A stretch of DNA of 23,198 nt from Pedosphaera sp. (lineage in GTDB: Bacteria > Verrucomicrobiota > Verrucomicrobiia > Limisphaerales > SIBH01). This document shows positions 17,801 through 20,800 of the stretch, piece by piece (within the stretch, counting starts at the first letter, position 1; each line of letters starts with the position of its first letter). Location of the stretch: the NCBI GenBank assembly GCA_031414955.1, contig JANOQV010000259.1, positions 1-23,198 on the forward strand. Reading direction: 5' to 3'. Made by a program: the position numbers.

Positions 17801-20800
17801 CCTACCAACTCGAAGACAAACGCCGCGCCTATCGCGACTCCAAGCGTCTCGCGTTCAGCAGCGAAGCCCCAGTGAACTGGTGTCCGGAACTCGGCACCGT
17901 GCTGGCCAACGAGGAAGTCATCGACGGCAAGAGCGAAGTGGGCGGCTTCCCCGTGGTGCGCCGGCCCATGCGCCAATGGATGCTCCGCATCACCGCCTAC
18001 GCCGAGAAACTGCTCGACGATCTCAACACGATCGACTGGAGCGACTCGCTCAAGGAGATGCAGCGGAACTGGATTGGGAAGAGCGAAGGGGCGGAGGTGG
18101 ATTTTCAGATTGGTGGCCGTGCGGACAAGATTCGCGTTTTCACGACGCGCCCCGATACGCTGTTCGGTGCGACCTACATGGTGTTGTCGCCGGAGCACAA
18201 GTTGGTCGCGGAAATCACGACGGCCGAGCAGCGCGAAGCCGTGAAGCAGTATCAGCAGTTCGCCGCCGGCAAGAGCGATCTCGAACGCACGGAACTCGCG
18301 AAGGAGAAGACCGGTGTCTTCACCGGTTCGTATGCCATCAATCCGGTGAACGGGGAGAAGATGCCCATCTGGATAGCTGACTACGTGCTCGCGAGCTACG
18401 GCACAGGTGCGATCATGGCAGTTCCATCTCATGATGCGCGCGACATGGAGTTCGCGCTCAAGTTCGACATCACAACTCAGAACGTGGTGCTGCCGCCAGA
18501 CGCTTGGTTGCGCGAGCGAGTGAGTTCCACTTTTGCAGATAAGACGATTGAAGAAATCCGCGACGTTTACAAAACCACGAATGCCTACTTCGGACAGGAA
18601 GCATTCTGTGAAACTGGAACTGCGATCAATTCAGCCAATCCTGAAATCTCCCTCAACGGCCTCCCTACCGCCGAAGCCAAAGCGAAAATCACCGCCTGGC
18701 TCGAAGCGAAGAGCCTCGGCAAGAAGACCATCAACTACAAGCTGCGCGACTGGCTCTTCAGCCGGCAGCGTTACTGGGGCGAGCCGTTCCCCATCGTGTG
18801 GAAGAAGGACGCGAATGGGAACGCGTATCACGAGGCGCTGCCGGAGAGCGCGCTGCCGTTGCTGCCGCCCGCGCTGGACGATTACAAGCCCACGCCCGAC
18901 GGCCAACCGCCGCTCGCCCGCGCGCAGGACTGGGTGAACCGGCCCGACGGCTCCGTGCGCGAAACGAACACCATGCCGCAGTGGGCGGGCAGTTGCTGGT
19001 ATTACCTGCGCTATCTCGATGCGGGGAATGATGGCACCTTTTGTTCCGCCGAGGCTGAGGAGTATTGGATGGGCGCGCCAAGCGTCGCGCAACTCGGTTT
19101 CCACGAGTGGCAGACGCGGCTCAAGGCGCTTTATGCCTTCGCTCTTAACAATCCGGAGAACCGGAAGGATTTCGTCAGCTACGACGTGGTCAGCCCGGCG
19201 GAAGCGGATTTTCTCGCCGGGAAAACAGGGCTGCATCTCGCAGGATACCGGCGGATGATCGACAACTTTGCCATCCGTCACGTCATGAACCAGCATGGTG
19301 ATGCGGAGAAGGAGCGCCAGCGCGGGCTGCTCCCAGTCAGCTTTGATGACCTGCTCCAGATTCCAGCCATCATCCACTCGGCGGATGAAGTGCGCTCCGG
19401 CGGCAAGACCGCAACGAACCTGGATCTGATCCTCTACACAAAGCGCGTTAATGGATGGCTGTACTATTTCGAAGAAGTACGGACGGCGAATGATTTGTTG
19501 GCGGCCAAGACGTTGTACAAAAAACCGGCGACGGCGAGTCATGCCGGTGAAGGCCTTGCTCAAACGCCCGAAGCGCTCCGTCGCACTGGGGAGAATCTAG
19601 CGAACACAGGGCCGCGTGGCAAGGTCACGCCCGGCGTGGACCTCTACGTTGGCGGCACCGAGCACGCCGTGCTGCACCTGCTCTACGCGCGCTTCTGGCA
19701 CAAGGTGCTGTTCGACCTCGGCTATGTCTCCACGCCCGAGCCGTTCTTCAAGCTCGTGAACCAGGGACTCATCCTCGGCGAGGACGGCCAGAAGATGTCC
19801 AAGTCGCGCGGCAACACGGTCAACCCCGACGACATCCTCGTGGAATTCGGCGCGGATGCCTTCCGCCTTTACGAAATGTTCATGGGGCCGCTGGAGATGG
19901 TGAAGCCGTGGAACACGAAGGGCGTGGAAGGCGTGTATCGTTTCCTCGGCCGCGTCTGGCGTTTGTTCGTCGATGAAGCGAGCGAGACGGAGTTCGAGCA
20001 GACGCAGACCGCCACCGATCCGGCGCAGCAGCGCGAGTTGCTGAAGTTGATCAAGCTCCACGCCGGCATCAAGGACGCCGAGGCGACGAAGGAACAGCTC
20101 AAGGCACTGCACGCCTGCATCAAGAAGGTGACGGAAGATCTCGACGGCCTGCGCTTCAACACCGCCATCTCGGCCATGATGGTCTTCGCCAACGACGCCA
20201 TGAACTGGGAAACGAAGCCGGTCTCCGTGCTGCGCGAGTTCCTGATTCTGCTCCAGCCTTTCGCCCCGCACATCGCGGAGGAGTTGTGGGAGAAATTGTC
20301 CAAAGTCCAAAGTACAAAGTCCAAAGTCACGGACGACGGTGCGGCGACCTTGGACCTTGGACTTTGGACTTTGGACTTGTCCTACCAGCCCTGGCCGAAG
20401 CATGACCCCGCCCTGCTCGTCGAAGACACGCTGGAGATTCCCGTGCAGGTGAACGGCAAGCTCCGCGACGTAATCCGCGTGGCGGCGACGGCAACGCAGC
20501 CGGAGATCGAAGCCCTCGCGCTCGCTTCGGAGAAGGCGCAGCAGTTCATGGGCGGCAAGGCGGTGAAGAAAATCATCGTGGTACCCAAGAAGCTGGTGAA
20601 CATCGTGGTGACCTGACGCCGCGCGCGCCTGGGCTTCGAGCGGATGGAAAAGAGGAAACGGGCCGAGCCCGTTTCCTCGTATCATTCCTGACTGACCACC
20701 AAGGAAGGACGGGCAGTCACCCGTTCCAAGGCCCTCGCCCCGTCACCGCCCGACTATGGATGCGCCGATCGGTAGAAGGCCGAATTGGTCGCCGGATTGG

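Follow-up and report, generated by a model that had tools for sequence, protein, structure and literature searches.

The LeuRS gene (leuS) of the Pedosphaera sp. genome analyzed here (G000) carries, in the part that encodes the C-terminal region, a palindrome built of tandem 7-base (heptad) units. This raises the question of whether such palindromes are elements that were inserted whole into the reading frames of conserved genes and are translated there, as an earlier note on this DNA had proposed by likening them to the Rickettsia palindromic elements (RPEs), or whether their arms arise and change in another way. The window, i.e., the whole stretch of DNA that was analyzed, is 23,198 nucleotides (nt) long. 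The relatives with which it was compared are numbered from G001 onward, and several of them are congeneric. Two sequencing runs from freshwater sediment, both belonging to one study, contain 84-89% of the sampled words and may be where the DNA came from. The features in and around leuS are as follows.

17107-20616, + strand: leuS host gene, 1169 amino acids (aa), TIGR00396 match of 922.7 bits against a cut-off of 548.4
17706-17806, + strand: in-frame palindrome of the GTAG-ended REP-dimer type, labeled from its ends and PMC3733652
19075-19629, + strand: 185-aa in-frame LeuRS insert with a PBECR3 domain at 19195-19530 (domain match, E 6e-18)
20298-20328, + strand: left arm of about four heptad units of the CCAAAGT type, with its peptide starting at residue 1065
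20329-20345, + strand: centre of 17 nt, with no second occurrence in the genome
20346-20378, + strand: right arm, heptad units inverted

This leuS is the sole LeuRS match in G000 at E ≤ 1e-100. The insert, previously placed at 20301-20373 (residues 1065-1089), is real and in frame, and its boundaries were set here at 20298-20378, which correspond to residues 1065-1090 of an open frame in the anticodon-binding domain. As RNA, the hairpin has a predicted folding energy of −56.3 kcal/mol (z −8.3), a value that was equaled by 0 of 200 shuffles. The Rfam search over 16800-20800 returned nothing near the gathering score, and the GTAG/CGTC tag is absent from the ends of 20298-20378. The loop with the hairpin is 34 aa long in G000, G007, G008 and G009, and the last three had correctly been said to keep the insert. 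In G002, G004, G005 and G006 the loop has 18 aa, about 10 of which are replaced by the 26-aa arm-centre-arm block in the longer loop; the reported shortening of the G002 protein by 16 residues thus stands. The loop measures 13 aa in other phyla, while 18 aa is its commonest length within the order, and the leuS centre contains no recognizable native sequence. In G003, where a left-arm remnant with a 15-residue gap had been described, we found instead one arm of a different unit in a 22-aa loop (gap 12). The last 542 residues of LeuRS were modeled with AlphaFold from 54 sequences. Model residues 444-460, which make up most of the insert, had pLDDT values below 50, and the neighboring helices and the C-terminal domain were confident. 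In this model the insert thus sits in a low-confidence loop. The fold search included LeuRS and IleRS structures among the matches listed and did not give the position of the loop relative to the tRNA. In all six pairs of the four genomes with the insert, pN was lower than pS, on small counts (2-7 changes per pair). The pS of the insert was also below that of its flanks in all six, a possible sign that the DNA or RNA is constrained.

LeuRS of G000 carries other in-frame insertions. The palindrome at 17706-17806 has ~45 related places in G000, ~10 of them in long genes, and the loop in which it lies is occupied by other palindromes in relatives. The PBECR3 insert lies directly before the catalytic D.Y.GG motif, in a loop that holds heptad hairpins in many relatives, and its domain folds at high confidence in the model. 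Within the order (251 genomes), 13 of the 18 PBECR3 matches are at the identical place of LeuRS and five are in other proteins. The insert is patchy in the genus, being present in G000, G003 and G008 and missing from G007, G009, G002, G005 and G010. That the domain is a cargo of heptad arms was considered but is not supported: among the seven inserts whose ends were read, none has paired arms and one has a heptad-like remnant at one end. Neither the literature search nor the accessible text of PMC5512222 contained a fusion of PBECR to a synthetase. The LeuRS loop after the GTGAIMAVP motif is hypervariable (45-112 aa), and G000 and G034, which belong to different families, have near-identical 77-aa versions of it, a hint at the exchange of loop segments. 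Outside the gene, the spacer that separates leuS from its divergent upstream neighbor holds a near-perfect 100-nt hairpin (16916-17015; z ~−9); this hairpin has ~27 related places, none in a long gene. Degenerate 21-base periodic repeats occur at 22567-23119, near the contig end and outside called genes.

All five loci quoted in the earlier note (LeuRS, RecG, Mfd, UbiD and lgt|miaA) lie where it had put them, their frames are open and their genes are confirmed. In-frame palindromes were found in the conserved genes leuS, recG and hemW. In recG there are two sites, as a second hairpin accompanies the one quoted, and both are strong on the mRNA. The 20-residue difference stated for RecG of G002 and G003 holds, with 159 nt in G000 compared to 99 nt in six congeners. 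The copies in Mfd and UbiD are also in frame, but on the mRNA neither of them forms a palindrome (z +0.07 and +1.5; antisense −1.55 and −4.5), and in both a left arm of one unit is paired with a right arm of another. The inserts add 16 residues in leuS and 20 in RecG, and the UbiD loop is just 3 residues longer than the array-free loop of G006. Two genes, C306:4006-4440 and C184:7947-9002, have 45-55 element-derived C-terminal residues; they are probably g05038 and g03252, for which a full element had been said to supply the last ~45 residues.

The heptad arrays are not confined to these loci. With our own gene calls (4756 genes; 5.6 Mb genic and 0.95 Mb intergenic), 122 period-7 arrays were found inside called genes of G000 and 228 between genes. 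After codon shuffling, the number inside genes fell to 3 and 1 (two shuffles), and other periods (5, 8, 10, and 11) gave 4-9 arrays in called genes. Arrays situated well within a gene number 106; they are spread over 82 called genes, and roughly four fifths of them are single arms. An inverted partner arm accompanies 21 of the 101 coding arrays of at least 21 nt, compared to 133 of the 168 arrays between co-oriented genes and none with shuffled flanks. By family search, the hosts include LeuRS, MetRS, RecG, Mfd, HemW, ArgJ, LeuA, CstA and a DinB-DnaE2 protein, and many further hosts resemble secreted or signaling proteins, judged from their first residues. Intragenic arrays, as far as such sequence comparisons can tell, extend beyond housekeeping genes. 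The DinB-DnaE2 protein is encoded by one 1518-aa frame (C21:5988-10544), which joins a DinB/Pol IV domain with a DnaE2-type polymerase and contains four heptad arrays.

Within genes the arrays fall into 45 unit classes, and overall there are more than 45. The unit class of 68 of the 106 coding arrays is also found intergenically, compared to 6% of random 7-mers. The 31 recurrent classes align to ~AA-N-S-Y-Y-S, better than 20 of 20 random controls, and array length is tightly centered on about four units. The arm design also extends beyond period 7: three GxxExxY genes of G000 (C19:21052-21396, C301:22897-23232, and C184:108917-109258) have inverted tandem arms of 9-10 bases, the lgt|miaA locus of G001 holds a 9-mer-armed element, and arms of 8-mers flank several four-helix-bundle genes.

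The arms found within genes are those that bracket four-helix-bundle (PF05635/TIGR02436) genes, and the intragenic copies themselves contain no such gene. Read by eye, each of the four such genes of G000 lies between inverted tandem arms, with units of 7 bases in three cases and of ~8 bases in one, and these cassettes sit among protein genes, not in 23S rRNA. In RecG the arms correspond to those of the cassette on C217, with TGA changed to TGC. In the relatives, inverted flanks were found at 21 of 30 four-helix-bundle loci, compared to 4 of 53 control windows, while period-7 arms on both sides were found at 9 of the 29 scorable loci (one masked-flank row was dropped); several others had 8-mer arms and some had none. 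Genomes with 0-1 four-helix-bundle gene had 2 arrays in 67 kb, compared to 82 in 288 kb elsewhere. The more four-helix-bundle genes a genome has, the denser are the arrays near three marker genes (rho 0.49 in 39 genomes, among which kin are not independent). G019, whose 12 kb contain no array despite 10 four-helix-bundle genes, is a counter-example, and several other genomes are likewise arrayless. These counts show an association of arrays with four-helix-bundle genes and do not amount to a mechanism. The four-helix-bundle protein presumably resembles Avd, the partner of diversity-generating reverse transcriptases. Reverse transcriptase as a neighbor of the arrays was considered and discarded, as both RVT_1 matches of G000 (C267:11678-13428 and C8:10479-11898, the latter with its enzyme split over two frames) lack arrays within a few kb; judged from their neighbors, both loci look like putative diversity-generating retroelements.

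Whether the intragenic arrays reach the protein can be judged from their reading frames in relatives. Anchors that were free to lie in any frame served to locate eight loops in LeuRS, RecG, Mfd and UbiD. The search located 333 loops, a count that excludes loci without a found anchor and one named duplicate row and in which relatives share some events. None of the 86 array-bearing loops was shifted, and one had a stop upstream of its array. The sole shifted loop in this set is array-free and belongs to G002, whose leuS has other single-base indels. Array-bearing loops are in frame in 8 of 8 cases in HemW and in 7 of 8 in MetRS, so that the frame is kept in 101 of 102 array-bearing orthologous loops overall; the exception, metG of G008, is shifted and is exactly one 7-base unit (7 nt) short. 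Since removal at the RNA level would be expected to leave about two thirds of the arrays out of frame, translation is their likely fate, and the intragenic arrays are probably translated. In 6 of 8 sense-strand arrays with a stop-bearing unit, a codon is altered precisely at the would-be in-frame stop, although this count is partly circular. Strand bias was rejected as proof of translation, because the bias against stop-bearing units inside genes (31:6) is accompanied by one of 25:10 between genes.

Comparisons of orthologous loops also revealed how the arms change. At the leuS loop, 11 of the 24 array-bearing versions have 18 aa, the length of 27 of the 46 array-free versions, and the site holds 18 unit classes that are scattered over a quick, weakly supported tree. 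The retained length and the many classes together show that arms often replace native codons. The MetRS loop has 96 nt with or without an array, and the left arm in UbiD consists of 11 codons in place of 10-11 native ones. The UbiD core WP.AP lies between the arm positions in all six genomes read, including G006, which has no array, and G001 and G003, which have the right arm alone. Native residues were lost at leuS and recG despite the net gains of 16 and 20 aa. By eye, the centres of the paired arms in G000 are unique after inner arm parts are set aside, and no target duplication is visible at the leuS, RecG and UbiD junctions.

The units themselves switch in concert. The MetRS arms of G007 and G009 differ by one substitution that is repeated in all four units. 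In the second RecG hairpin, all four units of the left arm differ between G000 and G008, and all four of the right arm are changed complementarily. One site in HemW holds two different hairpins, of the CCAAAGT type in G000, G005 and G008 and of the AATGACG type in G004, G007, G009 and G011. Because all copies of a unit change together, which point mutation would not be expected to yield, copying of short patches is suggested. Both MetRS unit types coexist in G007, G008 and G009, which indicates that donors exist, and both are missing from G022 and G026. Among the loci compared, we saw no copying intermediate and matched no donor to a recipient arm.

Based on these results, we consider it fairly probable that the leuS hairpin is one of about 100 translated, tolerated and probably functionless patches, in which the mobile and overwriting unit is an arm of about four 7-mers rather than the palindrome. 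As the comparisons show, arms lie within genes in frame and in variable loops; they often overwrite native codons at constant length or arise around a persisting host core, and their unit changes in all four copies together and complementarily in both arms. The source of a new arm may be a donor arm at another site of the genome, from which a short patch would be copied in a conversion-like manner, while fold-back copying would adapt the partner arm; selection would retain frame-keeping events in flexible loops and remove in-frame stops. The template of the rewriting could be another arm or the arm itself. The participation of the four-helix-bundle protein is a guess.

A stronger form, to which we give a distinctly smaller chance, is that a dedicated element-encoded process, perhaps with the four-helix-bundle protein, writes four-unit heptad arms on host DNA and rewrites them in place. 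Such a process could bracket any sequence, host codons and small cargo genes included, and arm writing would then be both a general source of the heptamer repeats of bacteria and a mutator that changes several loop residues at once. The very loops that carry arms also accept entire domains, the phage PBECR3 domain of this LeuRS being an example.

Insertion of a fixed palindromic element as a whole, i.e., a classical MITE or an RPE moved by a transposase acting in trans and then decaying to single arms, is unlikely. Such an origin would account for the compound arm layout that is common to the larger intergenic copies and for the residues added at leuS and RecG; G000 has 12 Y1 transposase matches, and REP-type palindromes occur in the same genes as the arrays, one of them, GTAG-ended and of the dimer type, nested inside the heptad element at lgt|miaA of G008. 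A fixed element is, however, difficult to reconcile with centres that are unique or consist of host sequence, with junctions at which no duplicated target is apparent and native residues are lost, and with the many unit classes found per site, often at unchanged loop length. Given these centres, the predominance of single arms within genes, the replacement of codons at constant length and the switching of units in place, the picture of an element inserted whole is unsupported. What remains of the proposed RPE-like behavior is its protein side, i.e., in-frame, probably translated and tolerated peptides in conserved proteins.

Arrays without any donor appear at least as improbable. In such a scheme, the host polymerase would slip on chance 7-mer seeds, with three-unit steps keeping the frame, and fold-back template switching would build the second arm and match it to the first. 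Slippage has already been proposed for bacterial heptamers (cited in the accessible text of PMC4692102), and template switching homogenizes inverted arms in yeast coding DNA according to that of PMC8604942. A mechanism of this type accounts for the concerted and complementary changes without a donor, and for length variants of one and three units, such as metG of G008, which is 7 nt short, and the leuS loop of G010, which is 7 aa longer. It does not readily explain why the pool of units is restricted and shared with intergenic arms, why the length centers on about four units, why the leuS unit array is found in 24 of 151 genomes from this order, the matches ranging from 0 to more than 40, or why the arrays track four-helix-bundle genes.

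Very improbable is a role at the RNA level, be it processing of the RNase III type as in S23p intervening sequences, control of the mRNA or removal from the message. On the mRNA, the leuS hairpin and the two RecG hairpins fold strongly, changes in paired arms are complementary, and the Coxiella intervening sequence is described as having heptamers at its RNase III site (PMC4990558, as far as accessible). Removal would nevertheless free the frame, which array-bearing loops almost always keep; partner arms are far rarer among coding arrays than between co-oriented genes, and the Mfd and UbiD copies are unfolded on the mRNA.

For the inserts, an assembly artefact can practically be dismissed, given that the leuS insert is present in four genomes with independent substitutions and that congeners share the inserts in RecG, Mfd, UbiD, HemW and MetRS. 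The lgt|miaA locus is where an artefact deserves more weight. A full element had been said to join lgt and miaA into one frame of 610 aa. This frame is real in the G000 assembly, but not as a conserved fusion: both genes were present in the fetched locus of 16 of 25 genomes, read-through was found in G000 alone, and the 610-aa Lgt-MiaA protein forms a cluster of one. Another protein with both domains appeared once among the best 120 matches, without arms. The lgt stop is carried in the left arm of the element in six congeners, and before this stop G000 lacks exactly one 7-nt unit relative to G005, G007 and G008. The missing unit moves the lgt stop out of frame and thereby joins the two frames; the ATG of miaA is retained. 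A loss of the same size disrupts metG, an essential gene, in G008. The fusion would thus be a recent slip or an assembly collapse, as in metG of G008, with about even odds of a collapse for the fusion alone. The long open frames of G011, G017 and G024 were rejected as fusions because they have a stop between lgt and miaA. In G017 and G024, heptad hairpins lie directly 3' of the miaA start codon and give N-terminal extensions. The spacers given previously for this locus, 43 nt in G002 and 80 nt in G003, differ from ours (~47 nt, with a decayed element inside, and 16 nt, respectively), for which the choice of start matters. One-unit assembly collapses can yield false fusions or false pseudogenes, and array loops distort protein alignments.

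Several known systems resemble the arrays in part, and the comparisons that follow draw on the accessible text of the papers cited. RPEs are palindromic repeats that lie in frame in conserved genes and are tolerated, and a guanylate kinase is active with such an insert (PMC2229807, PMC10969869). In-frame palindromic repeats that encode a tolerated peptide in conserved genes are common to both systems. RPEs, however, are families of 105-146 bp with conserved sequence and peptide (PMC2229807, PMC10969869), whereas the arrays described here are tandem heptamers of many unit types with unique centres, are mostly single arms in coding regions, and replace native codons.

The intragenic GTAG REPs reach their highest number in Opitutus terrae and often sit in repair genes, DnaE2 and tRNA synthetases (PMC3733652). 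They share with our arrays the phylum, dimers that encode 20-30 aa and similar hosts, but they come with a GTAG tag and a RAYT transposase, both of which the heptad arms lack (PMC3733652). Intragenic palindromes in a free-living lineage, the setting to which the earlier note had pointed, are thus already in print.

The S23p intervening sequence of Coxiella has a PF05635 gene, inverted ends and 5' tandem heptamers of variable number (PMC4990558). A PF05635 gene between inverted arms is thus found both there and in the cassettes of G000. The S23p sequence sits in 23S rRNA, from which RNase III excises it (PMC4990558), in contrast to the cassettes among protein genes and the gene-less arms within frames in G000. 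Template switching in yeast also homogenizes arms and thereby changes several amino acids at once, but it is described as sporadic and as acting on unrelated short repeats without a common heptad pool (PMC8604942), unlike the arrays in G000.

We conclude that the arrays work like RPEs at the protein level yet lack features that define RPEs (a dispersed family with conserved full-length sequence and peptide), MITEs (a target-site duplication, as judged by eye at the leuS, RecG and UbiD junctions) and REPs (a GTAG or CGTC tag). In-frame selfish palindromes are already known, so that the finding as such contributes one more lineage and one more element. Our literature search, from which subscription papers were largely outside, yielded no account of translated heptad arms in Verrucomicrobiota or of unit switching in place, and the accessible text of PMC3184786 and PMC4060949 contributed no specifics. 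In-frame heptamer tracts also occur in cyanobacterial genes, and this search did not meet them.

The heptamer repeats of Xanthomonas (GGGAATC) and Nostoc (GGGGAYT) mostly have four units, often form inverted pairs, are mostly intergenic, and are of unexplained origin (PMC4692102). G000 likewise has an excess of period-7 arrays, which comprise about four units and are often paired as inverted repeats. In G000, however, more than 45 unit classes occur and about a third of the arrays lie in called genes, whereas Xanthomonas and Nostoc have one unit per genome and 7-11% intragenic copies; a link to four-helix-bundle genes and the switching of units in place are unmentioned in the accessible text on these repeats (PMC4692102). 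The added value of the present arrays is a record of arm change, for which orthologous loops of single-copy essential genes serve as fixed landmarks. These loops show the rewriting of whole arms and of paired arms between congeners, and thereby make the origin of bacterial heptamer repeats testable.
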